Shown here piece by piece: positions 5,492 through 53,762 of a DNA stretch of 64,000 bases. The stretch's first letter is position 1. Each line of letters opens with the position of its first letter. A model generated the notes under the pieces. The model saw nothing but the letters and a program-made list of their open reading frames with translations, was not told the origin of the DNA and did no database searches. Source of the DNA: Deltaproteobacteria bacterium (GTDB lineage Bacteria; Desulfobacterota; Desulfomonilia; UBA1062). Where the stretch lies: the NCBI GenBank assembly GCA_029552245.1, contig JAKPDW010000017.1, forward strand, positions 48,368 to 112,367, read 5' to 3'. The position numbers and the translations under genes are program-made.

Positions 5492-7347
5492 TCAGCGTCG
5501 AGGGTCTCTGGAAGAGTTACGGGTCCCAGGTCTTGCTCGAGGGCGTCTCCTTCAAGGTCAACCAGAAGGAGCGCGTGGGCCTCGTCGGCCGCAACGGCCA
5601 CGGCAAGACGACCCTCATGCGCATCATAGCCGGGCTCGAGGAGCCCGATACGGGCACCGTCATTATCCCGAGGAACTACCGCATCGGCTACGTCACGCAG
5701 CACCTGGACTTCACCGAGGCGACCGTGCTCGCGGAGGGCATGAAAGGCCTTCGAGGCGACGGCAGGGACCAGGCGTGGAAGGTGGAAAAGGTGCTCATGG
5801 GCCTCGGGTTTTCGGCCGAGGACATGCACAGGCATCCCCACGAGTTCTCGGGCGGCTTCCAGGTGAGGCTCAACCTGGCGAAGGTGATCGTCTCCGAGCC
5901 GGACATGCTGCTCCTCGACGAGCCCACGAACTACCTGGACATCACGTCCATCAGGTGGATCGAGCGGTTTCTCTCGTCGTGGCCGAGGGAACTCATCCTC
6001 ATCACCCATGACCGCACCTTCATGGACAGGATCGTGACCCACACCATGGGCATCCACAGGCGCAAGGTGCGCAAGGTGGAAGGGGACACCTCCAAGTACT
6101 ACACCCAGATTGCACAGGACGAGGAGGTCTACGAGCGAACGCGGGTCAACGAGGAGCGCAAGCGCAAGGAGATCGAGGAGTTCATCGCGCAGTTCAGGGC
6201 CAAGGCGAGGCTCGTTGGACTCGTGCAGTCGCGCATAAGGCTCCTCGAGAAGCAGGAGAGGAAAGAGAAGCTCGAGAAGATCGAGACCCTCGAGTTCTCG
6301 TTCAGGAGCGCGCCCTTTCACGGAAAGTACGTGCTGGCGGCGAGGGACGTGAGCTTCTCCTACGACGCCGCGAAGCCCCTGATACAGGACTTCTCCCTCG
6401 TGGTCAAGCCGGGCGAGAGGGTCTGCATCGTGGGTGCGAACGGCCGCGGGAAGACCACCCTGCTCAGGCTGCTCGCCGGGCGGTTGAGGCCAACCAGGGG
6501 CGAGGTCTCCGTCCACCCCAGGGCGGTCTTCGGTGTCTACGAGCAGACGAACACGTTCTCGCTCGTGCCCTCAAGGACCGTGGAGGAGGAGATCATGAGC
6601 GCCTCTGTGGACATCGATCGGCAGAGAGCCCGGGGCATATGCGGCGCCATGATGTTCGAGGGGGACGATGCGCTCAAGAAGATCGAGGTCCTCTCGGGCG
6701 GGGAGAAGAGCAGGGTCATGCTCGGCAAGATCCTGGCGACGCCGGTGAACGTGCTCCTTCTGGACGAGCCGTCGAACCACCTCGACATGGAGTCCACCGA
6801 CGCCCTGCTTGCCGCCCTGGACTCGTTCGAAGGCGCCGTCGTGATGGTCACCCATAACGAGCTGCTGCTCGATGCGATCGCCGACAGGCTCGTCGTGTTC
6901 AGAAACGGCGCATTGGAAGTGTTCGAGGGGGGCTACGACTGGTTCCTCAGGAAGGGAGGCTGGGGTGACGACGAGGAGGCGGCGGCCTGCTCCCGCAGGG
7001 AAGCGCGGCAGCACCCCGATGGAGGGAAGCCGAGCAAGAAGGAACTCCGCAGGCGGAGGGGGGAGATCGTTGCGGAGCGGTCGCGCGTCATCGGCCCCAT
7101 CGAGAAACGGATGGCGTTCGTCGAGTCCGAGATCGAGAGGCTCGAGCGGCGGCTCGCATGCCACAACGAGGAGCTCCAGAGTGCGAGCTTCGCGCGAGAC
7201 GGGGCGAAGGTCGTGGAGGTCTCGAGGCTGATGCACGAGTGCGAACAGGCGATCGAGGCCTTCTTCGGAGAGCTCGAGGCGCTCCACGGTGAACTCGAGC
7301 GTCACAGGGCAGCCTTCGAGGCGCAGCTCGCAGGGCTCGAGGATTGA
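5488..7347 (+). CDS. ABC-F family ATPase (two ABC cassettes + C-terminal coiled coil; Uup/EttA/YheS-like)
   Basis: Two Walker A motifs (GRNGHGKTT, GANGRGKTT), two signature motifs (FSGGFQVRL, LSGGEKSRV) and a charged coiled-coil tail. The TTG start at 5488 overlaps the upstream stop (TTGA), which implies translational coupling. Confidence 0.85.
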   Translation: MISVEGLWKSYGSQVLLEGVSFKVNQKERVGLVGRNGHGKTTLMRIIAGLEEPDTGTVIIPRNYRIGYVTQHLDFTEATVLAEGMKGLRGDGRDQAWKVEKVLMGLGFSAEDMHRHPHEFSGGFQVRLNLAKVIVSEPDMLLLDEPTNYLDITSIRWIERFLSSWPRELILITHDRTFMDRIVTHTMGIHRRKVRKVEGDTSKYYTQIAQDEEVYERTRVNEERKRKEIEEFIAQFRAKARLVGLVQSRIRLLEKQERKEKLEKIETLEFSFRSAPFHGKYVLAARDVSFSYDAAKPLIQDFSLVVKPGERVCIVGANGRGKTTLLRLLAGRLRPTRGEVSVHPRAVFGVYEQTNTFSLVPSRTVEEEIMSASVDIDRQRARGICGAMMFEGDDALKKIEVLSGGEKSRVMLGKILATPVNVLLLDEPSNHLDMESTDALLAALDSFEGAVVMVTHNELLLDAIADRLVVFRNGALEVFEGGYDWFLRKGGWGDDEEAAACSRREARQHPDGGKPSKKELRRRRGEIVAERSRVIGPIEKRMAFVESEIERLERRLACHNEELQSASFARDGAKVVEVSRLMHECEQAIEAFFGELEALHGELERHRAAFEAQLAGLED

Positions 7348-12878: not shown

Positions 12879-13994
12879 ATGGAACGCATCGTGGAAGAGT
12901 TCAAGAAGGCTTCGGCAGACCCCATCGCCTACGGTCGGGCGCTGAAGGAGGATGGAAGGAAGATTATCGCCTTCTTCTGCACCTACACGCCGGAGGAGAT
13001 CATCCACGCATCCGGCGTCCACCCGATGCGCCTGTTCGGTACGACCAGGGACAGTTCCGCAGCCGACAGGCACCTCCAGGCGTACTGCTGCTCGCTGGTC
13101 CGCGGCGCCCTCGCGCAGGCCCTCTCGGGAGAGCTCGACTTCATCGACGGCGCCGTCTTCCCCCACACGTGCGACTCCATCCAGAGGCTCTCCGATATCT
13201 GGAGGCTGAACACGGCCTACGGTTTCTTCGCGGACGTCGTGCTGCCCGTGAAGCTCACGTCCGCAAGCGCGCGCTCCTATTTCGAGGACGTGCTGGCGAA
13301 GTTGAGATCGGACCTGGAGAAGGGCCTGTCGACGAGGATCTCGGACGACGACCTGCGGGCTTCCATCAGAACGTACAACTCGATACGGGCGTCCCTGTCT
13401 GAGCTGTACGGGTTCGTGTCGAGAGGGGCCTCCCCCCTGCTCCCCGGGGACGTGAGCGCCTTGGTGAGGGGGTCCATGATCCTGGAAAGGAGCGCGGCGG
13501 AGAGGCTCCTCAAGGAACTCGTCCGTGCGCACGACGGCATCGGCAGGAAAGACACGAACCTCAAGAGGGTCATGCTCGTGGGCGGCCTGTGCGACCACCC
13601 CGACATCTACCGGCTGCTTTTGGATTCGGGCGCGCTCGTCGTGTGGGACGACCTGTGCTCCGGTTCCAGGTATTTCGAGGGGGCGATCCCCGAGGACGGC
13701 GACCCCATCGCAAACCTGGCGGGCAGGTACTTCGAGCGGGCCGTCTGCCCTGCCAAGCACTCCTCCACGACCGCGAGGGCGCGCCGCCTGGTGGAAGCGG
13801 CGATCAGGGAACGCGTCCAGGGTGTCATATTCCTCCAGCTCAAGTTCTGCGACCCCCACGCCTTCGACTACCCCTACCTGAAGGAGACCCTGGACAGCCA
13901 TTCCATCCCGAGCATGCTCCTGGAGATCGAGGACCAGCTCCCGCCGGAGGGGCAGCTTCTCACCAGGTTCGAGACCTTCGTGCAGACGATATGA
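12879..13994 (+). CDS. 2-hydroxyacyl-CoA dehydratase / benzoyl-CoA reductase large-subunit family protein (HgdB/BcrB-like)
   Basis: Family signature CTYTPEEIIHASGVHPMRLFG and a size (371 aa) typical of HgdAB/BcrBC components. The ATG at 12879 is preceded by GGGAGGGG. Confidence 0.8.
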   Translation: MERIVEEFKKASADPIAYGRALKEDGRKIIAFFCTYTPEEIIHASGVHPMRLFGTTRDSSAADRHLQAYCCSLVRGALAQALSGELDFIDGAVFPHTCDSIQRLSDIWRLNTAYGFFADVVLPVKLTSASARSYFEDVLAKLRSDLEKGLSTRISDDDLRASIRTYNSIRASLSELYGFVSRGASPLLPGDVSALVRGSMILERSAAERLLKELVRAHDGIGRKDTNLKRVMLVGGLCDHPDIYRLLLDSGALVVWDDLCSGSRYFEGAIPEDGDPIANLAGRYFERAVCPAKHSSTTARARRLVEAAIRERVQGVIFLQLKFCDPHAFDYPYLKETLDSHSIPSMLLEIEDQLPPEGQLLTRFETFVQTI

Positions 13995-16183: not shown

Positions 16184-16951
16184 ATGATCACAGCAGGGAT
16201 AGACATCGGGTCCATCACCGCGAAGGCGGCCGTGGTCGAAGACGGCAACGTCCTCGGCACGAAGGTCATCTTCACCGGATACAACGTGGAGACCGCCGCG
16301 CGGAAGGTGTACGGAGAGCTCCTCGCCGAGCTCGGTCTGCCGGCCGATGCAGTGGAGCGGGTCGTGGCAACCGGATACGGCAGGAACGGGGTCCCCTTCG
16401 CTGACAAGGCCATGACCGAGATCATCTGCCACGCCGCGGGCGCACACCACCTCATGCCCGAGGTGAGGACCGTGATCGACATCGGCGGCCAGGACAGCAA
16501 GGCCATGGCCGTCGATCACAAGGGCGCGGTGAGGGACTTCGTCATGAACGACAAGTGCGCCGCCGGGACGGGACGCTTCCTCGAGGTCATGGCGAGGGCC
16601 CTGGAGGTGAACCTGGACGACTTCGGGAACCAGTCACTCCTCGCCCCTGCGCCGGCAAAGATCAGCAGCATCTGCACCGTGTTCGCCGAGTCGGAGGTGA
16701 TCTCCCTCATCTCGAGGGGGGAGCCGCGGGAGAACATCATCGCGGGGATCCACGACGCGGTGGCGGCCAGGGTCTACGCCATGGCCCAGCGCATCAAGGC
16801 CGACCCCCCGATCATGATGACCGGCGGCGTGGCCAAGAACCAAGGGGTGGTCAAGGCCCTGGAACGGAGGTTCGGCTCGCCGATCAGCACGCACGAGCTC
16901 GCCCAGGTCAACGGCGCCATAGGCGCCGCCGTGCTCGCATCAGGCATCTGA
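16184..16951 (+). CDS. Acyl-CoA dehydratase activase (HgdC/BcrAD/BadF family ATPase, component A)
   Basis: Actin-fold ATPase motifs (GIDIGSITAKAAVV, DIGGQDSKAMAV) and the cluster-helix block NDKCAAGTGRFLEV. Confidence 0.85.
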   Translation: MITAGIDIGSITAKAAVVEDGNVLGTKVIFTGYNVETAARKVYGELLAELGLPADAVERVVATGYGRNGVPFADKAMTEIICHAAGAHHLMPEVRTVIDIGGQDSKAMAVDHKGAVRDFVMNDKCAAGTGRFLEVMARALEVNLDDFGNQSLLAPAPAKISSICTVFAESEVISLISRGEPRENIIAGIHDAVAARVYAMAQRIKADPPIMMTGGVAKNQGVVKALERRFGSPISTHELAQVNGAIGAAVLASGI

Positions 16952-16961
16952 CCTCCGCAGG

Positions 16962-17057
16962 CCGCCCTGCCCGAAACGTCCGACGGGAGAAAAGCGTTCG
17001 GCGGGTCGTCGTCCAGCCGGACGCTTGAGGGATCGAGTTCCTCGAGGTCCTTGTTCC
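16962..17057. repeat. ~90 bp intergenic repeat element, copy A (contains an imperfect 14-bp stem hairpin); second copy at 20706..20794
   Basis: About 93% identical to 20706..20794. The core is aaagcgttcggcgggtcgtcgtcc[a/c]gcc[g/g]acgcttgagggatcgag. Confidence 0.7.
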
Positions 17058-17398
17058 CGATGAGGGGGGAGAACTCCGCGGGAGAGGCGCTCTTCCGGAT
17101 GGCCTGTTCTCGGTCTCCTGGTGTACCTGGGTATATGGGTTGCGGATGAGCTTCAGAAGGTATTTTGGGGACGGGTCCACCTCGAGGCCTGACTGAACCG
17201 GGACAAGAGGCACCAAAAGCCTTTCGTCTTTGGTTCTCACCACGGACCCCAAGGGGCTCGGGTCGCGGCACGCAAGGGCGGTGATGGCCCTCCCGGTGGG
17301 TCCTTGACCAGGGGTCATGGCGGGGACATGCCCGTGTTGACACACGTCCGAGATCGCCTGTATTATGTTCTTTTCCATGAAATGGTGAGGGAGGTGTC

Positions 17399-18874
17399 AT
17401 GGTCGCCTACGAAAGTCCCCTGGTCATTGCCAAGGCCCAGTCCGAGATCGCCATCATCCCGAGGATGGCCAACCGGCACGGCCTCATCGCCGGGGCCACG
17501 GGCACGGGCAAGACCGTCACGCTGCGGGTCATGGCGGAGCGGTTCAGCGCCATCGGGGTCCCGGTCTTCATGGCGGACGTCAAGGGCGATCTCTCCGCGT
17601 TGTGCTCCGCAGGCGGGGACAATCCCAAGGTGAGGGAGCGCGTGGCGCAGCTCGGCCTCGACGGGTTCACTTACGAGGGCTTCCCCGTGGTCTTCTGGGA
17701 TGTCTTCGGCGAGCAGGGGCACCCGGTCCGCACCACGGTCTCCGAGATGGGGCCCGTGCTCCTGGGCCGTATCCTCATGCTCAACGACATCCAGGGCGGG
17801 GTCCTGACCCTCACGTTCAGGATTGCGGACGACAACGGCCTGCTCCTCCTCGACCTGAAGGACCTGCGCGCCATGCTCCAGTTCGTTGGGGACAATGCCG
17901 AGCAGTTCAAGACCCAGTACGGGAATATCTCCGCCGCCAGCATCGGGGCCATCCAGCGGGGCCTCCTGGCCCTGGAGGAGCAGGGCGGGGACAGGTTCTT
18001 CGGCGAGCCGGCCCTGAACCTGCAGGACCTCATGCAGACGGATGCCGGCGGGAAGGGCGTCATCAACATCTTCACCGCGGACAGGCTCATGGCCTCACCC
18101 AAGCTCTATGCCACCTTCCTGCTGTGGATGCTCTCCGAGCTCTTCGAGACGCTCCCCGAGGTTGGCGACCCGGACAAGCCAAGGCTGGTGTTCTTCTTCG
18201 ACGAGGCCCACCTCCTCTTCGACGACGCACCCAAGGCCTTGGTGGAAAAGATCGAGCAGGTGGTGCGGCTCATCCGCTCCAAGGGTGTGGGCGTCTACTT
18301 CATCACCCAGAACCCCCTGGACCTGCCCGAGACCGTGCTCGGCCAGCTGGGGAACAGGGTCCAGCACGCCCTGCGGGCCTTCACGCCCAAGGACCAGAAG
18401 AACGTGAAGGCCGCTGCCGAGACCTTCCGGGCGGGACCAGGCATGGACGTGACCAAAGCGATCACCGAGCTGGGGGTGGGAGAGGCGCTGGTCTCGGTCC
18501 TCGACGAGAAGGGCGCGCCCACCGAGGTGCAACGCGCCTTCATATGCCCGCCCCAAAGCAGGCTCACCCCCCTGAGCCCTGAGGAACGGCAGGACGTGAT
18601 CAGGAAGTCGCCCTGCTGGGGCATCTACGAGAAGGCCGTTGACCGGGAATCGGCCTTCGAGATGCTCAAGGCCCGCTCCGAGCAGGCGGCCAGGGAGAGG
18701 GAAGAGATCCTCGAACAGAAGCGGGAAGCCAACGATGCGAGGAAGGGGCGATCCCAGGGCGGTGACATCGTGTCCGCCATGGTGAAGAGCGCGGCCCATG
18801 CCATCGGAAGCCAGGTGGGCAGGCAGATCATCAGGGGAGTGCTCGGCTCGATCTTCGGCGGCAGGCGGCGGTGA
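17399..18874 (+). CDS. HerA-like / DUF853 family P-loop ATPase (YjgR-like)
   Basis: Walker A GATGTGKT at the N-terminus, the conserved [11 protein letters not shown] block (Walker B), and a ~490 aa length typical of YjgR/DUF853 proteins. GAGGGAGG RBS upstream. Confidence 0.8.
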
Positions 18875-19112
18875 GGCCCCTGTTGGGATGCAGGACCGGG
18901 CACCGCGTCGCCCGACATGAATGGCCGCATCGGTGACGGATGTGGCTGTACACATTCCACAGGCTTCCGTAGGAGTGCGTGTCGAGAGCCATACCATACG
19001 GACATATGCGGGGCCTGCGGAACGATAGCTTGCGCCGATCCCGTCTCGGAGGGAGAAGAGAGCCCCCGATGGAGCCCCTTTCTGGAAAGGGCGCTCGTGC
19101 GGATCGTGATGT

Positions 19113-19260
19113 GCGTGATCCTCGTGTCGGGGATGTCTGGTTCGCAGGCCAGGCCTGGACCACACGTACGCCGCGTGATCCTCGTAGCGGGGATGTCTGG
19201 CGTGATGCCCATTTCCGCGCACCGGTCACAAAGCGTGATCCTCGTAGCGGCGATGCCTGG
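19113..19260. repeat. CRISPR-like mini-array: 3 degenerate 28-bp direct repeats separated by two unique 32-bp spacers (period exactly 60 bp); no cas genes in the window
   Basis: Repeats at 19113-19140, 19173-19200 and 19233-19260 (gcgtgatcctcgt[gt/ag]cgg[g/c]gatg[t/c]ctgg). The spacers 19141-19172 and 19201-19232 are unrelated to each other. Confidence 0.5.
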
Positions 19261-19704
19261 AACTGTATGGACGGCAGGAGACGAAAGGCCCTGTATGCCC
19301 TTCGATGCCGGCAAGGTGCACCTCCGCTCTTTCTCCGCCCAGGCGTGGTCGCGCCGGACACCGAGGAGAGAGACATGAGGCCCGTGAAGCTGGCGATGTC
19401 TCAGGCCGACACCGCCCAGATTTCGATGATCCCGACCTCGGCAGACACGATACACCCATCTTCTGGAAAACGACGATGTCGGTACCGTGGCGCATGATCG
19501 AGGGTTTTACCGCTGGCACAGGAACAAGGACCCTTCTCCGCAGCCAACGATCGTCTCGAAGGATTGCGATCCGACGGGCACCACATGGGCAGCTTACTCA
19601 TGATACTTACAGGAACTTGATGTCCCTCGTGTTGATTTGTGGATGTCCTGAGTTATCTTTGGTCAGATGAATTATGAACCCTGTTTGCGGGGAAGGAGGA
19701 AACC

Positions 19705-19914
19705 ATGAAGTACGGCGCACGCAACACTATTAAAGCCAAAGTGAAATCCGTTCATAAGGGCGACATCATGACCCTGGTGAAGTTTGATGCCATAAGCGCT
19801 CCGGAAATGGCGTCGGTCCTTACCACGGAATCGGTCGAAGGTATGGAACTCAAGCCAGGCGACAGCGTGCAGCTCGTCATCAAGGCCATCCACGTGCTGC
19901 CGGTCAAGGAGTAA
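19705..19914 (+). CDS. Mop/TOBE-domain molybdate(tungstate)-binding protein (molbindin), 69 aa
   Basis: A single TOBE domain (NTIKAKVKSV...GDSVQLVIKAIHV). A GGAGG RBS lies 7 nt upstream, and a short GC hairpin follows the stop. Confidence 0.7.
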   Translation: MKYGARNTIKAKVKSVHKGDIMTLVKFDAISAPEMASVLTTESVEGMELKPGDSVQLVIKAIHVLPVKE

Positions 19915-19954
19915 CACACGCGTCACGCATGCGCCCCTCACGAACGGGGCTGAG

Positions 19955-20044
19955 CGGCAAGACGTTTCGGATTTCGAGTCAGGATGATCCCAAGAACAGC
20001 GTGTCCACCATGCTGTTCGGCGGCAAGATGTTTTGGATTTCGAG
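19955..20044. repeat. Two copies of a 24-bp direct repeat (cggcaaga[c/t]gttt[c/t]ggatttcgag), 66 bp apart
   Basis: Copy 1 at 19955-19978 and copy 2 at 20021-20044, immediately downstream of the Mop gene. Confidence 0.5.
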
Positions 20045-20705
20045 GGCTACGGTGATATCTCACGTCACCATGACTGCACGTGCCGGTGTTTGAACGGACA
20101 CCCCCTCTTTCGGCCCAGCGTACTGCCGGCAGCAGCCCAGTTCAGGATATCCCGATCGTTGATGTTCTTGCAGGTGGCGATCAAGGTCTTGGACCAGAGC
20201 AGGGATACACGAACGAACGTGATGTGTGTCTTGGACACAACAGTTATACCGGTCAGCCTCACCGGCGATCTGTCAAGCTGGTTTGCCTTTGGACTTAAGG
20301 TGTCGGCCGTGGCCGCATGAGGCCATCTGCCGGGTGCGAGCGCAGCGGGAGAGGAACGAACGCCATGGGATCGGTTTGCCGTCTTCTGCGAGGATTCCAT
20401 CGTGGTCACAGACCAGGGGCTCTACCTCTACGTTGCCAATGTCGGGCATGGTACCCTCTCTCATGACAGAGGCCTCGTGCCCTTTGCATCTTCCTGCCAG
20501 TCATGGCCACCACGTTCACCGGCAGGAATCTTGATAGCAGAGATGAGAGGGGGACGCGTTCTCTTGTCGCTGCGAGGGTCAGATTGCCGCCCAGTACTTT
20601 GAGGCGATCCTTGTGAAACGAATGGAATGCCCCGCCGAGACTCACCCCATCGATGCCGGATTTTTTGCCAGACAGCGTGAAGCCGGCAGGCACCTGACGT
20701 CCTCA

Positions 20706-20794
20706 GGCGCCCTGCCCGGAACGTCCGACGGAAGAAAAGCGTTCGGCGGGTCGTCGTCCCGCCGAACGCTTGAGGGATCGAGCTCCTTGTTCGT
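20706..20794. repeat. ~90 bp intergenic repeat element, copy B (perfect 14-bp stem hairpin aagcgttcggcggg/cccgccgaacgctt, loop tcgtcgtc)
   Basis: Direct repeat of 16962..17057. It lies just downstream of the 3' end of the minus-strand acyl-CoA synthetase gene. Confidence 0.7.
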
Positions 20795-20808
20795 ATCCTG
20801 GCCGGGCC

Positions 20809-22617
<1,809 letters not shown>

Positions 22618-22900
22618 CGATAACCCTCCTCATACTATTTTCGAATCATTATGCTGCCAGGTGATTGATGCATGATAATGGATTGCATTGAAATTATCAA
22701 TAGCGATCGTGAGGGATCGTGACATAAGACGACCCCGGGTCGCGGCAGAGGTGAGGAAGGTCGGTTTCAAGGCCTGGCGGGCTTGGGGCCGCGATGCGGT
22801 CATGAAGGACAAGGGTGAGGCATCTGTCATGGTGGGGGCGGCGCCGAGAGCTGTGCCTCGTTGTCCGGAACAAGCCGGGAAGGTGACCGGAACCAGGGGG

Positions 22901-22984
22901 TGATCCATCGGGCGGATGGAGGGACTATCTCAGCCATCGTCTTCAGCACGGCGCAAAGGATGATCCCTCAGGCGGATGGAGGGG
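22901..22984. repeat. Two ~24-bp direct repeats 60 bp apart, each an inverted repeat TCCATC-N5-GATGGA (second copy half-degenerate)
   Basis: tgatccatcgggcggatggaggg at 22901-22923 and tgatccctcaggcggatggaggg at 22961-22983, in the 775-bp intergenic region between the tandem acyl-CoA synthetase genes. Confidence 0.5.
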
Positions 22985-23244
22985 CACAAAGCTCATGGGA
23001 AGTCGCACATCCCCGCCACCGTGTCCGGGGACATCTGCTCAAGGCCCTCGTCTTCGCGCCCGTTGCGATGGTTATGGGATCCCTGTCTCTTGGCCGAGCA
23101 GGGCAGGAGCCGTGTTCGAGCATGGACGGACGTGCCGGTTCGCACCCTCTGCCGCAACCCATGGGCGGGGGTGTCGGCGCAGGCCGAAAAAAGGCGGGAT
23201 GATCTGCGGGTGACACCCTTCGCCCTTTGGCGAAGGCAGGGTCT

Positions 23245-23333
23245 GCGCAACCCACACGGGCCCGTGATGCGGGTCCCTCAGGTCCACTACGAGCCCTCCG
23301 GAGGCGCGCAAACCACACGGGCCCGTGATGCGG
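23245..23333. repeat. Two 28-bp direct repeats (gcgcaa[c/a]ccacacgggcccgtgatgcgg, internal palindrome cacgggcccgtg) separated by a 33-bp unique spacer
   Basis: Copies at 23245-23272 and 23306-23333, 60 bp downstream of the 3' end of acyl-CoA synthetase paralog 2. Confidence 0.5.
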
Positions 23334-23392
23334 CCTCGACCTTTGTGGGCGCAGGGCAGGGTGTCAGGCCCCGCGCCCACGAAGGGTTCCTT

Positions 23393-25213
23393 TCAGTCGC
23401 CCGGGGGATAGAGGCTCTCGATGATGGAAGCGTATTTCTGGTTGATGACCCTGCGCTTGAGCTTGAGCGTGGGGGTCAGCTCGTCCGTCTCCTGGGACCA
23501 CTCCTTGTCGAGGAGTGCGAACTTGCGGATCTGCTCGACCCGAGCGTAGTCCTTCATGTTCTCCTCTATCTCGCGCGCGTAGAGGTCCTTCACCTTCTGG
23601 TTCTCGACGAGCTGCTTGCGGTTCGAGAACTCCACCCCGTTCTCCCTCGCCCACGACTCGAGCTCCGCAAATGCCGGGACGATCAGTGCGCTCAGGTACT
23701 TGCGGTTGTCGCCGATGACCGCCACCTGCTCGATGAACTTCGAGGCCTTCAGGCTGTTCTCGATGTTCTGGGGCGAGATGTTCTTGCCGCCTGAGGTCAC
23801 GATGATGTCCTTGAGGCGGCCGGTGATCTTGAGGTAGCCGTCCTTGTCGATCTCGCCGATGTCGCCGGTGCGGAAGAAACCGTCCTCGGTGAAGGCCTCC
23901 TTGGTGGCCTCGGGGTTCTTGTAGTAGCCCATCATGACCTGCGGGCCCTTGATGAGGATCTCCCCGCCCTCGCCGATCTTCACGATGGTGTCCTTCACGG
24001 CGACCCCGACGGTGCCCGGCTTTATCTTGTGACGCTTGTTCGTGTTCGTCACGGGGGAGGTCTCCGTGAGGCCGAACCCCTCGATCACCTTGATGCCCAT
24101 GCCGAGGAAGAACTCGGCATCGGAGACGGAAAGCGGACCGCCCCCGGAGAAGGCGAACTCGAGCCTGTCCATGCCGAGCGCCGCCTTGAGCTTTTTGAAG
24201 ATGAGCTTGTCAGCGAGGTTGTACTGGAACGCGAACCAACCGGTCCTGGGTCTTTCGTTGCAGATGTACGGGAGGTTCTTCGCCGCGAGCCCCATCGCCC
24301 AGTTGAAGAGGGCCTTCTTCACAGGCGGGGCGGTGGCCACCTTGGCGAGGATGCCCGCGTGGATCTTTTCGTAGAGCCTGGGAACGCTCACTATGCAGAC
24401 CGGCCTCACCTCCTGGAGGTTCTGCAGGATCTTGGAAAAGTCCTCCGCGAAGTACACCTTCATGCCGAAGGACATGGGGGTGTAGTACCCGCAGGTGCGC
24501 TCGAAGGAATGCGCAAGCGGCAGGAACGACAGGAACGTGAGCTCGTCCGCTCGGTTGAAGAGCTCGGGATCCACGTTGTAGATCTGCTGGACGTTCGCGA
24601 AGAAGTTGTTGTGCGAAAGCATGACCCCCTTGGGCGGCCCGGTGGTGCCGGAGGTGTAGATCAGGGTGGCGAGGTCCGGTGCCTTGATCTCGTTGATGCG
24701 CCTGTCGAACTCCTCGGGCGCCTGCTTGGAGGCCCCCTCCTTGAGCGCATCCTCGAACTGGACGACGCCCTCGATGGGGGACGCGATCGGGTCGAAGATC
24801 ACGATCTCCCTCAGGTTCGGCAGCTTGCCCCTCACCTCGAGGATCTTGTCCAGGTGTTCTTTGGTTGCCACGAAGCACATCACCGCATCCGAGTTGTCGA
24901 GGATGTAGCGGGACTCCTCCGCGGAGTTGGTCGCGTAGATGGGCACGTTGACGGCACCCACCGACAGGATGGCCAGGTCCGTGGCCCACCACTCCCAGCG
25001 GTTGGGGGAGAAGAGCGCGACCTTGTCACCGGGTCGTATCCCGTGCGCGATGAGGAAATACCCGAGGTTGCGCACAATGGTGTTCATCTTGTTCCACGAG
25101 ATGTCTTCGTAGACCCCCCTCGCATTCTTGAACGCGCAGATGGCGCGCTCGCCGAACTTCTCGGCCCGGTTCTGGAATACGGCCGGGATGGATTTCTCCT
25201 CGAACCTTGCCAT
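23393..25213 (-). CDS. Long-chain-fatty-acid--CoA ligase (AMP-forming acyl-CoA synthetase, FadD-like), paralog 2
   Basis: 606 aa, collinear with paralog 1 over its whole length. Motifs LIYTSGTTGPPKGVMLSH and ELTPTLKLKRR. Confidence 0.9.
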   Translation of the reverse strand: MARFEEKSIPAVFQNRAEKFGERAICAFKNARGVYEDISWNKMNTIVRNLGYFLIAHGIRPGDKVALFSPNRWEWWATDLAILSVGAVNVPIYATNSAEESRYILDNSDAVMCFVATKEHLDKILEVRGKLPNLREIVIFDPIASPIEGVVQFEDALKEGASKQAPEEFDRRINEIKAPDLATLIYTSGTTGPPKGVMLSHNNFFANVQQIYNVDPELFNRADELTFLSFLPLAHSFERTCGYYTPMSFGMKVYFAEDFSKILQNLQEVRPVCIVSVPRLYEKIHAGILAKVATAPPVKKALFNWAMGLAAKNLPYICNERPRTGWFAFQYNLADKLIFKKLKAALGMDRLEFAFSGGGPLSVSDAEFFLGMGIKVIEGFGLTETSPVTNTNKRHKIKPGTVGVAVKDTIVKIGEGGEILIKGPQVMMGYYKNPEATKEAFTEDGFFRTGDIGEIDKDGYLKITGRLKDIIVTSGGKNISPQNIENSLKASKFIEQVAVIGDNRKYLSALIVPAFAELESWARENGVEFSNRKQLVENQKVKDLYAREIEENMKDYARVEQIRKFALLDKEWSQETDELTPTLKLKRRVINQKYASIIESLYPPGD

Positions 25214-25339
25214 GATGCCCTCCTTCCTTGATCATTCTGTGGTCTGAGGCAAAACGCAATGAATATAAAGCAGTATACGAGAAACATTGCCGGAGATCAA
25301 ACCAAAAATTGACGAGGATAAATCAACGGCAGGCTCTCC

Positions 25340-25366
25340 TTGAGGACGGCTGAGTATTGGTATAAT
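25340..25366 (+). promoter_or_regulatory. Promoter candidate for the gatCAB operon (perfect TATAAT at 25361-25366 with an upstream TTGAGG)
   Basis: An AT-rich island in a high-GC genome, in the divergent intergenic region between acyl-CoA synthetase paralog 2 and gatC. Confidence 0.35.
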
Positions 25367-25541
25367 GAATGAAAGTTCCTTGGTGCCGTGCGGGGCCGAA
25401 GGTGCGGGGCGTCATCGCGGCAAGTCCGCCGTGACATGCCCCTCGGAGAGCTGGGGAAGTGCGTCGGGCGGGCGCGGGCGGCCCGGGCGTTTGTTGCCGG
25501 GCTCCATTCCTAGCCGGCAAACGCGACGGGAGGTGAGAGGG

Positions 25542-25835
25542 GTGAGGATCACCGAGCAGGAGGTGCTCCACGTGGCGCACCTCGCCCGTCTCTCGATCGG
25601 GGGCGAAGAGGCGGCGAGGTTCCGGAGGGAGCTGGGTTCGATACTGGAGTACATGGACATGCTCTCGGAGGTCGATACATCCGGGGTGGAGCCCTTCGTC
25701 TGCGTGCACGAGCAGGCGTCCGCGACGAGGGATGACGAGCCCGCAGAGACGCTCCCTCTCCGGCTCGTGCTCGCCCAGTCGCCTGCGGCGGGTCACGGCG
25801 CCTTCGAGGTGCCTCTCGTCATCGAAGAGGGGTGA
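25542..25835 (+). CDS. gatC: Asp-tRNA(Asn)/Glu-tRNA(Gln) amidotransferase subunit C
   Basis: GatC signature ITEQEVLHVAHLARLSI...ELGSILEYMDML, about 97 aa. The GTG start at 25542 follows a GGGAGG RBS. Confidence 0.85.
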   Translation: MRITEQEVLHVAHLARLSIGGEEAARFRRELGSILEYMDMLSEVDTSGVEPFVCVHEQASATRDDEPAETLPLRLVLAQSPAAGHGAFEVPLVIEEG

Positions 25836-25838
25836 CGG

Positions 25839-27260
25839 ATGCTCGACAAGGCCCGGAGGTTCCGCACCGAAGACCTTTCCCCGGTGGACGAGCTCGAGCG
25901 CCTGCTCGAGCGCTGCCGCGCGAGCGACCTGAACGCGTACATCACCTTGAACGGCGACGAGGCCCTGGATGCGGCCGAGCAGGCCTTGCAGAGGCTCGAC
26001 GAGGGCGACGACGACCCGCTCGTGGGCCTCGCCATAGCGGTCAAGGACAACATCTGCACGAAGGGCCTGCGCACCACCTGCGCCTCCCGGATGCTCGCCG
26101 ACTACGTGCCGCCCTACGACGCCCACGTGATACGGCTCCTCAGGCGCAAAAACGCGGTGATCATCGGGAAGACGAACATGGACGAGTTCGCCATGGGGTC
26201 GACGACCGTAACGAGCGCGTTCGGCCCGGCCAGGAACCCGTGGGACCCCATGCGCACCCCCGGCGGGTCGAGCGGCGGGTCGGCCGCCGCGGTCGCCGCC
26301 GGGCTCTGCGACGCTGCGCTCGGATCGGACACCGGCGGGTCCATCCGCCAGCCCGCGAGCTTCTGCGGCATAACCGGCCTGAAGCCCACCTATGGTTCCG
26401 TATCCCGCTACGGCCTCGTCGCCTTCGCCTCATCGCTCGACCAGATCGGCCCCATGGCGAGGAGCGCGCGTGACGTGGCCGTGCTCTTCGACGCCATAAG
26501 GGGGCACGATCCGAGAGACTCGACGAGCGCGGAGGCGGGTTGCCCTCCTATCCCGCTCGAAGGGATGGACCTCCGTGGGATCACCATAGGGGTCTGCAGG
26601 TCCTTCTTCTCCGAGGGGCTCGACAGGGACGTGGAGAGATCGGTGAGGCACGGCCTCGCCGTGTTCGAAGACCTCGGGGCGAAGGTCGTCGACATGGACC
26701 TGCCGCACCTCAGGTATTCCGTCGCCGCCTACTACCTCATCGCGCCGGCCGAGGCCAGCTCGAACCTGGCGCGGTACGACGGGGTCAGGTACGGGCTTCG
26801 CCTCTGTGACGAAAGGGATCTCATGGAGATGTACCTCGCAACGAGGAGCGCCGGGTTCGGCGACGAGGTGAAGAGGCGCATCATGCTCGGCACCTACGCC
26901 CTGTCCGCCGGGTACTACGAGGCCTACTACCACAAGGCCTCCCAGGTGCGCACCCTCATCGCCAAGGACCTGAGGGAGGCCTTCTCCCGATGCGACCTCC
27001 TTGCAGGCCCGACGGTCCCGGTGACGGCCTTCGGTCTCGGCGAGATGGTGGACGACCCCTTGAGCCTCTATCTTCTCGACATCTACACGATACCCGCGAA
27101 CCTTGCCGGGATACCGGCATTGAGCATGCCCTGCGGATTCGACGGCAGGGGCCTGCCCATAGGCCTCCAGCTCATGGCGCCCGGACACAGGGAGGATGTC
27201 CTGCTCGGGGCAGCCATGACGTTCCAGGATCACACGAGGTACCACGAGGTGAGGCCGTGA
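25839..27260 (+). CDS. gatA: Glutamyl-tRNA(Gln) amidotransferase subunit A (amidase signature family)
   Basis: Amidase signature [32 protein letters not shown] and [12 protein letters not shown]. Confidence 0.95.
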
Positions 27261-28690
27261 GGGGGATCGAGGCGGTCATCGGGCTCGAGGTGCATGCCCA
27301 GCTCAAGACGAAGACGAAGATGTTCTGCGGCTGTCCCAACTCGTTCGGCCAGGAGCTGAATACGTTCACCTGCCCGGTCTGCCTGGGGTTGCCGGGCGCC
27401 CTGCCGGTCTTGAACGCGAAGGCGGTGGAGCTGGCCGTCAGGCTCGGGCTCGCCCTCAACTGCAGGGTGCACGAGAGGTCCCTGTTCGCGAGGAAGAACT
27501 ACTTCTACCCGGACCTGCCGAAGGGATACCAGATCACCCAGTACGACAGCCCCCTGTGCACGGGCGGCTACCTGGACGTGGAGGCTGGTGGGGAAACCCG
27601 GCGCATAGGCATCAGGCGCATCCACCTGGAGGAGGATGCGGGAAGGAGCCTGCACGACGAGGCCTGCAAGAGGACGAGGATCGACTTCAACCGCTCGGGG
27701 GTCCCCCTCGTGGAGATCGTCACGGAACCCGACATCTCGTCGCCGGAAGAGGCCTCGGCCTTCCTGAAGGAGCTCAGGTCGATCCTCCTCCACCTGCGCG
27801 TCTCGGAGGGGACCATGGAGGAAGGAACCTTCCGCTGCGACGCGAACGTGTCCGTCCGCATGCCGGGAGACTCGACGCTCGGGGTGAGGACGGAGCTCAA
27901 GAACATGAACTCGTTCAAGAACGTGAGGAGGGCTCTCGCCTACGAGATCTCCCGCCAGGCGTCCCTCCTGGCGTCTTCGAGACCCGTGGTCCAGGAGACC
28001 CTCCTGTGGAGTGCGTCAGCCCGCCGCACCGTGCCCATGCGTTCCAAGGAGGAGAGTCACGACTACCGGTACTTTCCCGAGCCCGACCTCCCACCCCTTC
28101 TCGTCGACAGGATGCTGATCGATCGGGTCAGGGCCTCGATGCCGGAGCTCCCGTCAGAGAGGCGGAGGCGTTTCATGCGGCAGTACGGCCTGTCGGACTA
28201 TGACGCCTCCCAGGTGATCGCGACCCCCGAGCTCGCGGATTACTTCGAGGAGTGCTGCTCGCTCGTGGATGCACCCACGGACATCGCCCATTGGATCACG
28301 ACGGAACTCGTGAGGGTGATGGGCGAGAGCGGCGACACCCCCTTGACCACGAGGGTGAGGCCCTCGATGCTCACGGCCCTCGTGTCGCTCGTCAAGGCGG
28401 GCAGGCTCTCGGGCCTCATGGCCAAGGAGGTCCTGGGCCGCATGTCGAAGACGGGCGAAGACCCGGCGGCTGCTATGGAAGACCTCGGCGTCGAGCAGAT
28501 GGGCGACGAGGACGAGATCAGGGCCGCGGTGAGGGGCGTGATCGATGCGCACCCCGACGAGGCGAGGAGGTACAGGGAGGGGAAGACGCAGCTCGCGGGC
28601 TTCTTCGTGGGCGAGGTCATGAAGGTCACCTCGGGCAGGGCGGACCCGAAGCTCGCAATCAGGATCGTCAGGGAGATACTCGACTCATGA
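27257..28690 (+). CDS. gatB: Asp-tRNA(Asn)/Glu-tRNA(Gln) amidotransferase subunit B
   Basis: Conserved N-terminus [14 protein letters not shown], the [12 protein letters not shown] zinc motif and the C-terminal YqeY-like tail. The GTG start overlaps the gatA stop (GTGA). Confidence 0.9.
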
Positions 28691-29880
28691 GAAAACTTCA
28701 CACAGCGGAAACAGGGCAGGTTCGTGCCGGAGAGGTCACGGACGTGTACTTCGTCCGCACGAGGGATGTGTTGAGAGCGAAGGGGGCATCGAAGCGGGTG
28801 TGCATGGAGATCATCCTCAAGTCGTGGCCGGATCCGCGCTTCAGGTGGGGGATCTTCGCCGGCCTGGAAGAGGCCTGCACCCTGCTCGAGGGGAGGCCGG
28901 TCACGGTCCACGCCATGCCCGAGGGGAGCGTGTTCTTCACGGGAGAGCCGGTCATGACCATCGAGGGTGACTACCTGGCGTTCGGCGAGCTCGAGACGGC
29001 CATCCTGGGGTGCCTCTGCCAGGCCTCGGGCATAGCCACGCAGGCGTCCCGGTTCAGGGTCGCGAGCCGAGGAAAGGGGCTCATCAGCTTCGGGGCTCGC
29101 CGCATGCATCCCTCGATAGCACCCATGGTGGAACGATCGGCCTTCATAGGCGGCTGTGACGGGGTCGCCACCCTGGCCGCCGCCAGGCTCATCGGCGAGG
29201 TGCCGGTGGGGACCATGCCGCACGCGCTCGTCCTCCTGATGGGGGACACGGTAAGCGCGGCCCTCGCCTTCGACGAGGTGATGGGGCCTGACGTGCCCAG
29301 GGTGGTGCTCATCGATACCTTCCAAGACGAGAAATTCGAGGCCGTCCGCGTTGCGGAGGCCCTGGGCGGGCGACTGTACGGCGTGCGGCTGGACACGCCC
29401 TCGTCACGCAGGGGCGACTTCAGGGCATTGATAGAGGAGGTCAGGTGGGAGCTCGACCTCAGGGGGTACGGCCACGTGAAGATCTACGTGTCGGGCGGGC
29501 TCGGCATCGAGGACGTGCTGGCCCTGTCGGACGTGGTGGACGCGTTCGGCGTGGGCACCAGGATATCGAGCGCCGCCACCCTCGACTTCTCCATGGACGT
29601 GGTCGCCGTCGAGGGCCGGCCTCTTGCAAAGAGGGGCAAGCGCTCGGGGTACAAGGAGGTGCTCAGGTGCACCTCCTGCATGCGCGACTTCGTGGTGCAA
29701 AGGGGCATGACGAGGAGGTGCGCGTGTTCCGGGCCGACCGTCCCCCTTCTCGAGAAGGTCATGGACGATGGGGTGATCGTCAAGCAGCCGCCGACGGTAC
29801 GCCAGATGCGGGCCCTGGCCGTGGAATCCGTGGACAGGCTCAAGGGCACGACCCCCGAGCGGGAGGTGCTCGGCCTATGA
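28687..29880 (+). CDS. Nicotinate phosphoribosyltransferase family protein (archaeal-type NAPRTase)
   Basis: The blocks [32 protein letters not shown] and LIDTFQDE fit the NAPRTase/QPRTase-like fold. The ATG overlaps the gatB stop (ATGA). Confidence 0.7.
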
Positions 29881-30851
29881 TCACGCCTTTCGAGTTTGTG
29901 CGGGGCGCGTTCAGGATCCTGGACCAAAGGCTCTTGCCCTCGAGGGTGGAGTGGATCGAGTGTACGTGCGCCTCCCACGTCGCGCAGGCCATCCGGACGC
30001 TTGCCGTCAGGGGTGCCCCGGCGATAGGGATAGCCGCGGCCTTCGGTCTCGCGCTCGAGGCGAAGTCGGGGAGGGAGCGCCTCGAGGCCGCTGCGGATCT
30101 CCTCGTGAAGGCGAGGCCCACGGCGGTGAACCTGGCCTGGGCGGTCAGGAGGTGCATGGAGAGGGCGGCCCTGACGGAAGACGGCCTCCTCGCCGAGGCC
30201 TTGGAGGCCGAGGCGTTCGCCATCTGGGACGAGGAGAGGGAGGCCAACGAGGCCATGGCTGAACTCGGGTCGCTGCTGTTCGATCCCGGCCGCAGGCACC
30301 GGGTGCTCACCCACTGCAACGCGGGCGCCCTCGCGACAGGGGGTATCGGAACCGCGCTCGGGGTCGTCAAGAGGCTGAACGAAAAGGGCCTGCTCGAGAG
30401 GGTGTATGTCGACGAGACGAGGCCCCTGCTCCAGGGCGCACGCATAACGGCGTTCGAGCTCGTAACGGACGCCGTACCATGCACCCTCGTCACGGACTCC
30501 ACCGCCGGCTGGCTCATGCGCAGGCGTGTCGTGGACGCCGTGATCGTAGGTGCGGACAGGATCGCCCTGAACCTGGACACCGCGAACAAGATCGGCAGCT
30601 ATTCGCTCGCCGTGCTCGCGCACGCCCACGGGGTGCCGTTCTACGTGGCCGCCCCCATCTCCACCTTCGACAGGGCGACGCCGAGCGGTGAGGGGATACC
30701 CATCGAGGAGAGGGCGCCAGAGGAGGTGCTCGAGTTCGCGGGGGCGAAGGTGGCCCCTGGGGTGGACGTCTACAACCCGGCCTTCGACGTGGTGCCCGCC
30801 GGACTCGTCTCCGCCTTCATCACAGAGAAGGGCATCGTGAGGCGTGTCTGA
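29877..30851 (+). CDS. mtnA: S-methyl-5-thioribose-1-phosphate isomerase (eIF-2B alpha/beta/delta-like family)
   Basis: Collinear with MtnA: RGAPAIGIAAAFGLAL, CNAGALATGGIGTALGV, ETRPLLQGARITAFEL, VGADRIALNLDTANKIGSY. The ATG overlaps the upstream stop. Confidence 0.8.
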   Translation: MITPFEFVRGAFRILDQRLLPSRVEWIECTCASHVAQAIRTLAVRGAPAIGIAAAFGLALEAKSGRERLEAAADLLVKARPTAVNLAWAVRRCMERAALTEDGLLAEALEAEAFAIWDEEREANEAMAELGSLLFDPGRRHRVLTHCNAGALATGGIGTALGVVKRLNEKGLLERVYVDETRPLLQGARITAFELVTDAVPCTLVTDSTAGWLMRRRVVDAVIVGADRIALNLDTANKIGSYSLAVLAHAHGVPFYVAAPISTFDRATPSGEGIPIEERAPEEVLEFAGAKVAPGVDVYNPAFDVVPAGLVSAFITEKGIVRRV

Positions 30852-30866
30852 GAAATACGTCATGGG

Positions 30867-30954
30867 GAATCGCCCGGGTGCCGAGGAACGCCGGTAAAGC
30901 ACGAGGTCGATGCTTCAGGCCCAGGTGAATCGCCCGTGTACGCCGAGGAACGCC
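30867..30954. repeat. Two 26-28-bp direct repeats (gaatcgcccg[g/t]gt[--/ac]gccgaggaacgcc) with a 34-bp unique spacer; starts are 60 bp apart
   Basis: Copies at 30867-30892 and 30927-30954, 16 bp downstream of the mtnA stop. Confidence 0.5.
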
Positions 30955-53628: not shown

Positions 53629-53742
53629 GAGACCAGCCGCCCGGCCGCGAACGAGGCGTCATCACCGCCGGGCGCCCCCCAAGGAGGTGAACACCGAAGG
53701 GGGCCGAGCCTGTGCCCCTCGTGTACCCGTCCCGGACGATCT
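53529..53742. repeat. Direct duplication: the last ~62 bp of the DHH gene (53529-53590) recur 150 bp downstream (53679-53742) at ~90% identity
   Basis: The shared unit is caaggaggtgaacacc[a/g]aagggggccgagcc[c/t]gtgcccctcgtg[g/t]acccgtccc[a/g]ga. Confidence 0.6.
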
Positions 53743-53762
53743 CGAGGGTCAAGCCGGGGCCG

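Follow-up and report, generated by a model that had tools for sequence, protein, structure and literature searches.

Off-target spacer integration reportedly gave rise to neo-CRISPR in the E. coli type I-E experiments of Nivala, Shipman & Church (Nat Microbiol 2018), and the same work is said to name candidate natural neo-CRISPR in Yersinia pestis and Sulfolobus islandicus. Integration by Cas1-Cas2 at non-CRISPR sites of repeat length is known both in vitro and in vivo (PMC6698737, PMC7054753, 10.1101/148544). [quoted passage not shown] In E. coli type I-E, repeats measure 29(28) bp and spacers 32(33) bp, range 31 to 34 (PMC10011333).

Here we describe five mini-arrays (Table 1), all lying in non-coding DNA of one 12-kb section of the genome of an uncultured member of the Desulfomonilia. 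They were studied in a contiguous stretch of 64 kb, called the window below. Like neo-CRISPR, they are repeat-spacer-repeat units outside any CRISPR array, with a locus-specific duplication of native-repeat length around a spacer-sized insert and the 28 + 32/33 geometry of types I-E/I-F; the repeated use of one site, which can seed a small array, has its counterpart in D1. In contrast to neo-CRISPR, the five loci are clustered rather than scattered, D6 has 25 + 41 nt, and Cas1-Cas2, a native array and a protospacer were found in none of our searches. Repeat copies of one locus differ by 4-12%, so the units are old fossils and not fresh events.

Other known systems resemble the loci less closely. 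Canonical or orphan type I-E/I-F arrays share with them 28-nt direct repeats and unique 32-33-nt spacers, and D1 has three repeats, but here the repeats vary by locus and come in 2-3 copies each, no AT-rich leader, cas gene (within 73 kb) or CRISPR-DR match accompanies them, and the D6 repeat is HAD-like coding sequence. CRISPR-derived mini-arrays with regulatory roles (CreTA/CreR-type units, virus-borne mini-arrays and solitary repeat units; PMC8616872) likewise hold a single spacer between two repeat-like sequences. They sit in cas loci or viruses, and their repeats are similar to the cognate CRISPR repeat, whereas the copies described here match each other and no known repeat, and their neighbours are housekeeping genes. 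Direct target duplications also flank the inserts of transposable elements and casposons, and D6 has an empty site in a relative; the known duplications, however, measure 2-15 bp around kilobase inserts with their own ends, as against 25-28 bp around 31-41 bp here. Dispersed intergenic repeats such as REP/BIME and MITE are similarly short and GC-rich, some with palindromes, but each of our repeats occurs at one locus only, the copies are direct and not alternating, and hairpins do not exceed chance.

Geometry and statistical reality of the mini-arrays

Table 1. Positions of the mini-arrays and of surrounding features in the window
Feature	Position	Strand	Description
D1	19113..19260	+	three 28-nt direct repeats: 19113-19140, 19173-19200, 19233-19260; consensus GCGTGATCCTCGTAGCGGGGATGTCTGG; neighbouring copies 26/28 identical
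D1 spacers	19141-19172, 19201-19232		32 nt each, mutually unrelated; period 60
D6	19954..20044	+	25-nt repeats 19954-19978, 20020-20044; 23/25 identical; 41-nt spacer 19979-20019; period 66
D4	22898..22983	+	26-nt repeats 22898-22923, 22958-22983; 23/26 identical; 34-nt spacer; period 60; 28+32 with two mismatched end positions included (range 26-28/32-34)
D3	23245..23333	+	28-nt repeats 23245-23272, 23306-23333; 27/28 identical; 33-nt spacer 23273-23305; period 61
D5	30864..30954	+	repeats 30864-30892 (29 nt), 30924-30954 (31 nt), differing by a 2-nt indel; 31-nt spacer; period 60 at left end, 62 at right end
Mosaic block	17043..20686	.	3.6 kb, lineage-specific; carries D1 and D6
HEAT_2 gene fragment	17049-17289		in mosaic block
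herA	17399-18874		in mosaic block
Segment of unknown origin			~800 bp in mosaic block; holds D1
TOBE gene	19705-19914		in mosaic block
HAD-like pseudogene	about 19940-20465		156 aa, frameshifted; in mosaic block
102-bp direct repeat, left copy	16941..17042	+	flanks mosaic block; contains bidirectional terminator hairpin
102-bp direct repeat, right copy	20687..20787	+	flanks mosaic block; hairpin 20737-20771

Repeats of 26-29 nt are combined with spacers of 31-34 nt in five of the six repeat-spacer units, sizes that look as if measured by a ruler, and four of the five loci match a CRISPR repeat-spacer unit exactly, D6 being the outlier. At D1, a second unit follows the first with the same geometry.

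All five loci, first pointed out in an earlier note on this DNA, were found in their places and are far beyond chance. A scan of the whole 64 kb with 24-mers (up to 3 mismatches, every lag from 26 to 400 bp) returned only lags 60, 61 and 66, which belong to these loci, and one unrelated duplication at 53.5 kb, while block shuffles in the same scan gave 0 pairs. The duplication at 53.5 kb is a tandem one of 151 bp, its similarity being graded across the whole unit, unlike that of the mini-arrays. In unrelated loci of genomic and metagenomic origin, 1.59 Mb in all, pairs at lags 60-61 were confined to true type I-E arrays (period 61) and low-complexity tandem repeats. The loci recur in ~12 independent assemblies of the species (from JGI, ENA, NCBI and Logan, made by different assemblers), where they are 99.4-100% identical and always present; D5 is unaltered in the 99.4%-identical strain L273.

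Edges of the repeats are sharp, identity falling from 88-96% inside to 1-5 matches in 12 positions directly outside, and the spacers are unrelated to one another and to the flanks. A search for degenerate additional repeats found none (D1 has no fourth copy). No hidden 60/61 periodicity was detected in the remaining intergenic DNA. Taken together, these traits mean that every locus combines a unique insert with a duplication of its target and is neither a tandem repeat in decay nor a long array. The duplications are locus-specific: on either strand of 73 kb, no further copy of any locus's repeat was detected. The earlier note had rightly set the loci apart from plain tandem repeats (TRF reports none of them, because their spacers are unrelated) and from a dispersed family of REP/BIME type. 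Two of its finer observations stand only in part. The repeats do contain internal palindromes, but these fold no better than shuffles (z -1.3 to +1.6); and similarity between the repeats of different loci is weak, the core common to D1 and D4 being marginal (z 2.3, p ~0.04).

Genomic setting and conservation

All loci are situated in lineage-specific, GC-rich, non-coding DNA missing from the nearest relatives. Intergenic DNA of the latter is AT-rich and short, 218-291 bp vs 775 bp here. No mini-arrays were found in the other large intergenic regions of the window or in ~130 kb of the relatives. In the relatives L007 and L008, no mosaic block separates the genes for acyl-CoA ligase and BcrAD; homologues of its pieces lie at two other loci in relatives. 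Its flanking 102-bp direct repeats are 91% identical; this duplication around a 3.6-kb mosaic means that a non-CRISPR process acts in the stretch. A position directly 3' of genes, ascribed to most of the loci before, applies to D6, to D3 (the acyl-CoA ligase gene, 23393-25213(-), has its stop 60 nt upstream) and to D5, which starts 13 nt past the stop of an IF-2B/MtnA-family gene (Pfam PF01008; S-methyl-5-thioribose-1-phosphate isomerase by its NCBI name), but not to D1, 239 nt past herA, or to D4, which lies upstream of a gene.

In the relative L266, the site of D6 holds the repeat once and lacks the spacer. D6 thus represents a derived state, an insertion that duplicated its target, and is placed within the decayed 3' end of the HAD-like pseudogene, and its repeat is C-terminal coding sequence of that gene. 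The empty site is direct proof of this class of event. Selection on the loci has left no sign: they are absent from relatives, and in one strain the stem of D1 copy b has lost 1 nt.

Such a setting brings up the main alternative, possible though rather doubtful, that the loci are non-CRISPR scars of duplication-insertion repair in a rearrangement-prone stretch. They would have been left by template switching (MMBIR/FoSTeS-like) upon collapse of a replication fork or during break repair, or by staggered-break fill-in capturing filler DNA; each event would have placed a short captured fragment between two copies of a short stretch of target, and the same process on a larger scale would have built the 3.6-kb mosaic with its 102-bp duplications. 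Pieces of the mosaic were copied from at least two other loci, a direct duplication marks its flanks, another (the 151-bp one) lies at 53.5 kb, and all mini-arrays cluster in lineage-specific 'junk' DNA of one 12-kb stretch. The D6 insertion is proven, yet its size is non-CRISPR, and cas genes and protospacers were not found. Repair, however, has no ruler, so that the uniform dimensions of five of six units would be a remarkable coincidence, and D1 would need two events of the same geometry in succession at one site. Templates of the spacers are absent from the 64-kb window and from the relatives' loci, and the 151-bp duplication is graded over its whole unit, which the mini-arrays are not.

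Search for a CRISPR link and other readings

Neither cas genes nor canonical arrays were found in the window or in 9 kb upstream of it (73 kb in total), and the repeats differ between loci, in agreement with the initial judgement that this is not a canonical CRISPR array. No Rfam CRISPR-DR family came near significance for any locus. When phage and plasmid collections were searched by BLAST with the spacers, only chance matches appeared; six of seven IMG/VR spacer scans (20- to 22-mers) were empty, and the one match, 21 nt exact with 6 of the 12 remaining positions matching, is compatible with chance. These searches thus yielded no convincing protospacer. The D1 core GTGATCC..CGGGGATG bears a weak likeness to type I-E repeats (z 3.4 with the E. 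coli repeat; z 4.1 with the repeat of L133, a locus retrieved using a D1-derived pattern), and genome and metagenome scans gave single chance matches to it among the matches listed. Compared with a type I-C repeat and two of type I-E, D3, D5 and D6 showed no similarity; the sole further hint is a z of 4.3 for D3 against a type I-C consensus.

Standard finders would call D1 a CRISPR (3 x 28 nt, 32-nt spacers). This, the weak type I-E likeness of its core and its place within 800 bp of unknown origin, in a mosaic of translocated pieces, would suit decayed remnants of genuine unrelated or orphan CRISPR mini-arrays, i.e. trailer ends or mobile-element mini-arrays imported with intergenic DNA, each from a different CRISPR family. 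We consider such an origin unlikely, as four CRISPR families, each cut to exactly two repeats within 12 kb, are implausible, neither further degenerate repeats nor residual periodicity remain, the comparisons with Rfam and, for D3, D5 and D6, with the three type I-E and I-C repeats were negative, and the D6 repeat is demonstrably derived from a HAD-like gene.

Very unlikely, too, are functional paired elements, in which two protein-binding sites or RNA motifs about six helical turns apart would act as operators, terminators, sRNA genes or decoys. Gene 3' regions harbour four of the five loci, several repeats hold short palindromes, and both D6 copies are preceded by a hairpin, with T-runs inside (only copy 2 was flagged as terminator-like by the scan; the hairpin ahead of copy 1 was noticed by eye). 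But palindrome folding and the predicted terminator count stay at shuffle level, Rfam gives no match, all relatives lack the elements in their short AT-rich intergenic regions, and five differing 'sites' with one spacing would need five factors of the same geometry. With D6 in a pseudogene and an indel in the D1 stem of one strain, the terminator, sRNA or protein-binding roles proposed earlier are left without support. A chance pattern or assembly artefact, to which only the short repeat length at each locus lends support, is virtually inconceivable in view of the empty shuffles, the ~12 independent assemblies and the imperfect repeats, which de Bruijn graph artefacts would not have.

Off-target integration as a candidate origin

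A 28 + 32/33 layout with a period of 60-61 is the geometry of type I-E/I-F adaptation modules. Since four loci have the exact size of a repeat-spacer unit, they are most likely CRISPR-integrase scars outside an array. Our best reading, held with about as much confidence as doubt, takes them for neutral fossils left where Cas1-Cas2 integrated spacers off target ('ectopic' integration), that is, natural neo-CRISPR units of type I-E/I-F geometry. The opinion that they belong to no known element class can then be dropped, because neo-CRISPR predicts a locus-specific duplication of repeat length around one spacer-sized insert.

Several observations run counter to the neo-CRISPR reading. Cas genes or a canonical array in the 73 kb, a convincing protospacer and a match of the D1 repeat among curated CRISPR-DR families are all missing; D6, for which alone an empty site is proven, does not fit in size; random off-target integration does not predict five events clustered in 12 kb; and the 102-bp duplication and the mosaic testify to other duplication-insertion rearrangements in the stretch. 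On the other hand, locus-specific repeats, their weak similarity between loci and folding at shuffle level are what is expected of arbitrary target sites, and the two units of D1 with the same geometry, awkward for random repair, are natural for polarised acquisition.

In the course of events that we infer, including the enzyme, the timing and the source of the spacers, integrase attacks staggered ~28 bp apart at a non-CRISPR site would have inserted a 32-33-bp prespacer, and gap repair would have duplicated the 28 bp between the two cuts, producing repeat-spacer-repeat. The repeat would be whatever sequence occupied the integration site, which would explain why each locus has its own. At D1, the site would have been used twice, in the manner of a leader-proximal repeat, to give three repeats and two spacers. 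The units would have become fixed before the sampled strains diverged and would have decayed neutrally, until their repeat copies came to stand as far apart as they do now.

Geometry and genomic setting of the loci

Five loci within 12 kb of the window, designated D1, D3, D4, D5 and D6, each consist of a direct repeat, a spacer and a further copy of the repeat, with a repeat sequence specific to the locus. The observation is confirmed. A scan of the entire window with 24-mers, run over all lags between 26 and 400 with up to three mismatches allowed, returned lags of 60, 61 and 66 at these loci together with a 151/152-bp duplication at 53.5 kb, and nothing else. Block shuffles of the window gave no such pairs, and looser thresholds yielded only coding-type multiples of three and no additional mini-arrays. 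In 1.59 Mb of unrelated loci, pairs at lag 60-61 were confined to true CRISPR arrays of type I-E and to low-complexity tandem repeats, and such units were absent from about 130 kb of the nearest relatives and from the 9 kb of the contig that precede the window. Of the six units, five combine a repeat of 26-29 nt with a spacer of 31-34 nt, D6 (25 + 41) lying outside this class.

Repeat-spacer loci and other features of the window
Feature	Position	Description
D1	19113 / 19173 / 19233	three 28-nt repeats, neighbouring copies 26/28 identical; spacers 32 and 32 nt; period 60
D6	19954 / 20020	25-nt repeats, 23/25 identical; 41-nt spacer; period 66
D4	22898 / 22958	26-nt repeats, 23/26 identical; 34-nt spacer; period 60
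D3	23245 / 23306	28-nt repeats, 27/28 identical; 33-nt spacer; period 61
D5	30864 / 30924	repeats of 29 and 31 nt, 2-nt indel; 31-nt spacer; period 60-62
Mosaic block	~17043-20686	3.6 kb
Direct duplication flanking the block	16941-17042 and 20687-20787	102 bp, copies 91% identical
HAD-like homologue	19940-20465	- strand
Acyl-CoA ligase paralogues	20809-22617 and 23393-25213 (- strand)	~77.5% identical at nucleotide level
Hairpin in duplicated terminator region	20737-20771	17-bp stem
Hairpin adjoining D3	23340-23385	18-bp stem, directly 3' of ligase stop
DHH/DHHA1-family gene	52372-53628	
Tandem duplication	53526-53676 and 53677-53827	unit of ~151 bp

The loci are surrounded by ordinary chromosomal genes, their neighbours being housekeeping genes. 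Close to them lie BcrAD/HGD-D-type (benzoyl-CoA reductase/dehydratase-activator-like), herA-like and TOBE-domain genes, two long-chain acyl-CoA ligase paralogues in tandem, gatCAB, and genes for a nicotinate phosphoribosyltransferase, an IF-2B/MtnA-family protein and a PAS histidine kinase. Farther away are mfd, uvrA, rimM, rnhB and an N-type ATP pyrophosphatase gene (PP-loop, PF01171), possibly tilS-like. The ligase tandem pair is kept in the nearest relatives and is therefore an old duplication. The two hairpins of the table are strong, each lies directly behind a gene end, and they are probably intrinsic or bidirectional terminators, with no clear T-runs. No tRNA gene, no cas gene and no Rfam match at gathering threshold was found in the window, and cas1-cas2 was not found in the 9 kb upstream. 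The closest named homologues come from MAGs labelled Desulfomonilia or 'Deltaproteobacteria bacterium', and part of contig Ga0116245_10000075 (186.6 kb) of JGI metagenome 3300010338 is 99.99% identical to the window.

Anatomy of repeats and spacers

The boundaries of the repeats are sharp: identity is 88-96% within them and falls to 1-5 matches in 12 positions, the random level, directly outside. The spacers show no likeness to one another, nor to the DNA on the outer sides of the first and last repeats, and the mini-arrays are therefore not tandem duplications. A tandem duplication with a decayed middle is ruled out on the same ground, and TRF reports nothing at the loci. The D6 spacer displays only marginal similarity to the downstream sequence of a relative (z 1.67, p 0.07). 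The 53.5-kb locus, unlike the mini-arrays, is a true tandem duplication, with graded similarity along the whole unit. The duplicated sequence is the 3' end of the DHH/DHHA1-family gene, a copy of which now lies in the intergenic DNA behind it; identity is about 90% over the first 62 nt, and beyond them the copies have diverged further.

A relic of a long decayed array was rejected as well, since neither residual 60/61 autocorrelation in the remaining intergenic DNA nor degenerate repeats at +/-60 or +/-120 from the loci were detected. The earlier note had set the units apart from canonical CRISPR arrays and from REP-type repeats, and both distinctions hold. The repeats differ between loci, similarity being weak even for D1 versus D4 (z 2.3), while D3, D5 and D6 resemble nothing else, and no CRISPR-DR family reached E < 1 in permissive Rfam scans; no cas genes are adjacent, and D1 is preceded by GC-rich DNA in place of an AT-rich leader. 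A search of both strands of 73 kb (the window and the 9 kb upstream), allowing up to 25% mismatches, found no extra copy of any repeat. On the evidence of these 73 kb a dispersed family of REP, BIME or MITE type is thus rejected, hairpin energies being in the range of shuffles.

Two further candidates were discarded. A coding repeat, for which 60 bp would equal 20 codons, does not agree with the weak codon-position GC periodicity, with 20 stop-to-stop frames free of Pfam matches or with the period of 61 at D3. A structured RNA found no Rfam match at gathering threshold or at E up to 10, and the sequences fold no better than shuffles. The internal palindromes that had been pointed out in several repeats do exist, but their folding does not exceed that of dinucleotide shuffles; a terminator scan was likewise at shuffle level.

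The mosaic block and the empty site of D6

D1 and D6 are situated inside a block that is absent between the ligase and BcrAD genes in relatives and has been inserted between convergent genes. The block is a lineage-specific mosaic. One part consists of a HEAT_2 gene fragment and herA, the latter 90% identical at the nucleotide level to a locus of different context in relatives; another is a stretch of about 800 bp of unknown origin that carries D1; a third comprises the TOBE gene and a frameshifted HAD-like pseudogene of 156 aa, and has a 70.7%-identical counterpart at a different locus of the relatives. The flanking direct duplication derives from the original terminator region, and the whole looks like a circle integrated by a single crossover, or like the product of a template switch. 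The HAD-like homologue is split over three frames here and intact in relatives, and is therefore a pseudogene; it appears to be a decaying copy.

Relative L266 allows us to see the D6 site before insertion. Its homologue of D6 contains one repeat copy (GCAACGAGACGTTTCGGGTTTCGGAG), coding there for the C-terminus of the HAD-like protein, and no 41-nt spacer. The state of D6 is hence derived: 66 bp were inserted, of which 25 nt duplicate the target and 41 nt are of unknown origin, and the DNA that received them is pseudogene in this species. As judged from this sequence comparison, D6 proves the insertion-with-duplication class of event, though at a locus of atypical size.

A search for empty sites of D1, D3, D4 and D5 found none: the nearest relatives proved too distant for their intergenic DNA to be aligned at these places, and the strains of the same species too close, all of them being filled. 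At the protein level the next relatives reach at most 88% identity, and their intergenic regions are much shorter and AT-rich: the spacer between the two ligase genes measures 775 bp here against 218-291 bp in relatives, and the gap between the MtnA-family and kinase genes about 470-580 bp against 234-261 bp. The extra intergenic DNA has a GC content of 0.62-0.75, lacks codon periodicity and contains no Pfam-detectable remnants. An apparent match of the D5 spacer to an intergenic region of comparison locus L006 was not significant (p 0.26).

Proposed off-target spacer insertion and its rivals

To our knowledge, the CRISPR adaptation integrase is the only activity that duplicates a target of about 28 bp while inserting about 32-33 bp. 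Type I-F systems work with 28-bp repeats and 32-bp spacers. Nivala et al. 2018 reportedly describe in vivo off-target integration in E. coli, proposed as the seed of 'neo-CRISPR' loci (repeat-spacer units made by Cas1-Cas2 outside CRISPR arrays), and name candidate natural cases in two species. In E. coli type I-E, repeats are 29(28) bp and spacers 32(33) bp long, with a range of 31-34 (PMC10011333). [quoted passage not shown] Such anchoring could absorb small size deviations at arbitrary sites.

Our loci share with neo-CRISPR units a locus-specific direct duplication around one unrelated insert, with sharp boundaries. Their unit sizes fit type I-E/I-F values, the reference being generic and not the host's own module, and D6 is a misfit. 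At D1 a single site holds two units in succession, alike in geometry, as polarised re-use would be expected to leave. Because five of the six units fall into one size class and D1 is double, the reading that we prefer, at even odds, takes D1, D3, D4 and D5 for fossil off-target spacer insertions made by a type I-E/I-F-like integrase. D6 may be an aberrant event of this sort. The earlier note could place the pattern in no known element class; it overlooked that neo-CRISPR formation predicts exactly such a pattern, and the loci probably add a new natural case to a phenomenon that is known but has seldom been documented.

Several observations stand against off-target spacer insertion. Neither cas genes nor a native array were found in the 73 kb, and five events in 12 kb are not predicted by random off-target integration; the other large intergenic regions of the window contain no such events. 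No protospacer with a PAM was found by BLAST against phages and plasmids, in IMG/VR scans or in the window itself. Nucleotides 1-21 of the D3 spacer exactly match positions 13292-13312 of the viral locus L274 (IMGVR_UViG_3300046512_000017), inside a phage family-A DNA polymerase (polA) gene and with TTC upstream. The remaining 12 nt agree at only 6 positions, and about 0.1 20-mer matches are expected by chance per scan, on a rough estimate of collection size; the match is thus judged compatible with chance, which is probably its origin. The D1 core gave single chance matches among the matches listed from the genome and metagenome collections, two chance matches in the viral collection, both in coding sequence, and none in plasmid BLAST. 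The D1 core is matched by variant repeats from real type I-E arrays of Actinobacteria (loci L115 and L133); their retrieval was seeded by D1, so they are not independent evidence. In the genome collection, L120, from an unrelated genome, carries at 7055-7139 two isolated copies of a type I-E-like repeat (CATCCCCGCGTGCGCGGGGATCAC) with a period of 61; the pair may be a solitary mini-array or an array edge cut off at the locus end.

The main rival is a non-CRISPR repair or template-switching process, suggested by the other duplication-insertion rearrangements of the neighbourhood. We hold it to be possible, if somewhat unlikely: such a process has no ruler, and D1 is hard to explain by it. Two bolder readings, taken together, seem rather improbable. 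Either this stretch may preserve the natural birth of CRISPR-like arrays out of ordinary DNA, in which case Cas1-Cas2 would have turned again and again to non-CRISPR sites of a single chromosomal neighbourhood, and D1, re-used and grown to three repeats, would be a nascent array; or, more radically, an undescribed ruler-based activity unrelated to CRISPR may duplicate about 28 bp and insert about 32 bp. Import of orphan arrays from different families has a slim chance.

Across the loci, about 12 independent same-species assemblies (JGI, ENA/NCBI, Logan) agree at 99.4-100% identity and show no presence/absence variation, every contig being in the filled state. The sole change was seen in the most divergent strain, L142 (Logan SRR16606022; 99.4% identity), whose D1 copy b has lost 1 nt (19189) from a G-run in its stem. 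In this strain SNPs are about three times as dense in intergenic as in coding DNA. From uniform presence and the D1 stem deletion it follows that the units are fixed, without sign of constraint. It is very improbable that they are functional paired sites, iterons or terminators: the loci are absent from relatives, where no conservation is seen, they give no structural signal, D6 lies in a pseudogene and the D1 stem indel is polymorphic. An artefact is next to inconceivable.

Off-target spacer integration is the leading idea for the origin of new CRISPR arrays. As far as we know, it has been directly demonstrated only in engineered E. coli, natural cases being circumstantial and from two species. 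The geometry of our loci is striking and the hypothesis directly testable; an integrase is what we infer from that geometry. If the attribution is true, this segment, with its four or five scars and the double use of one site, would surpass every earlier natural record in density, offering concrete target sequences with which to test Cas1-Cas2 recognition outside arrays and the local clustering of integration. Should the attribution to CRISPR prove wrong, a size class as tight as 28 + 32 would suggest that some unknown mechanism of insertion exists. In genome annotation, 'CRISPR candidates' that consist of just two repeats with a sequence of their own are as a rule thrown out as noise; such discarded candidates may record past adaptation activity, even after the loss of cas genes.
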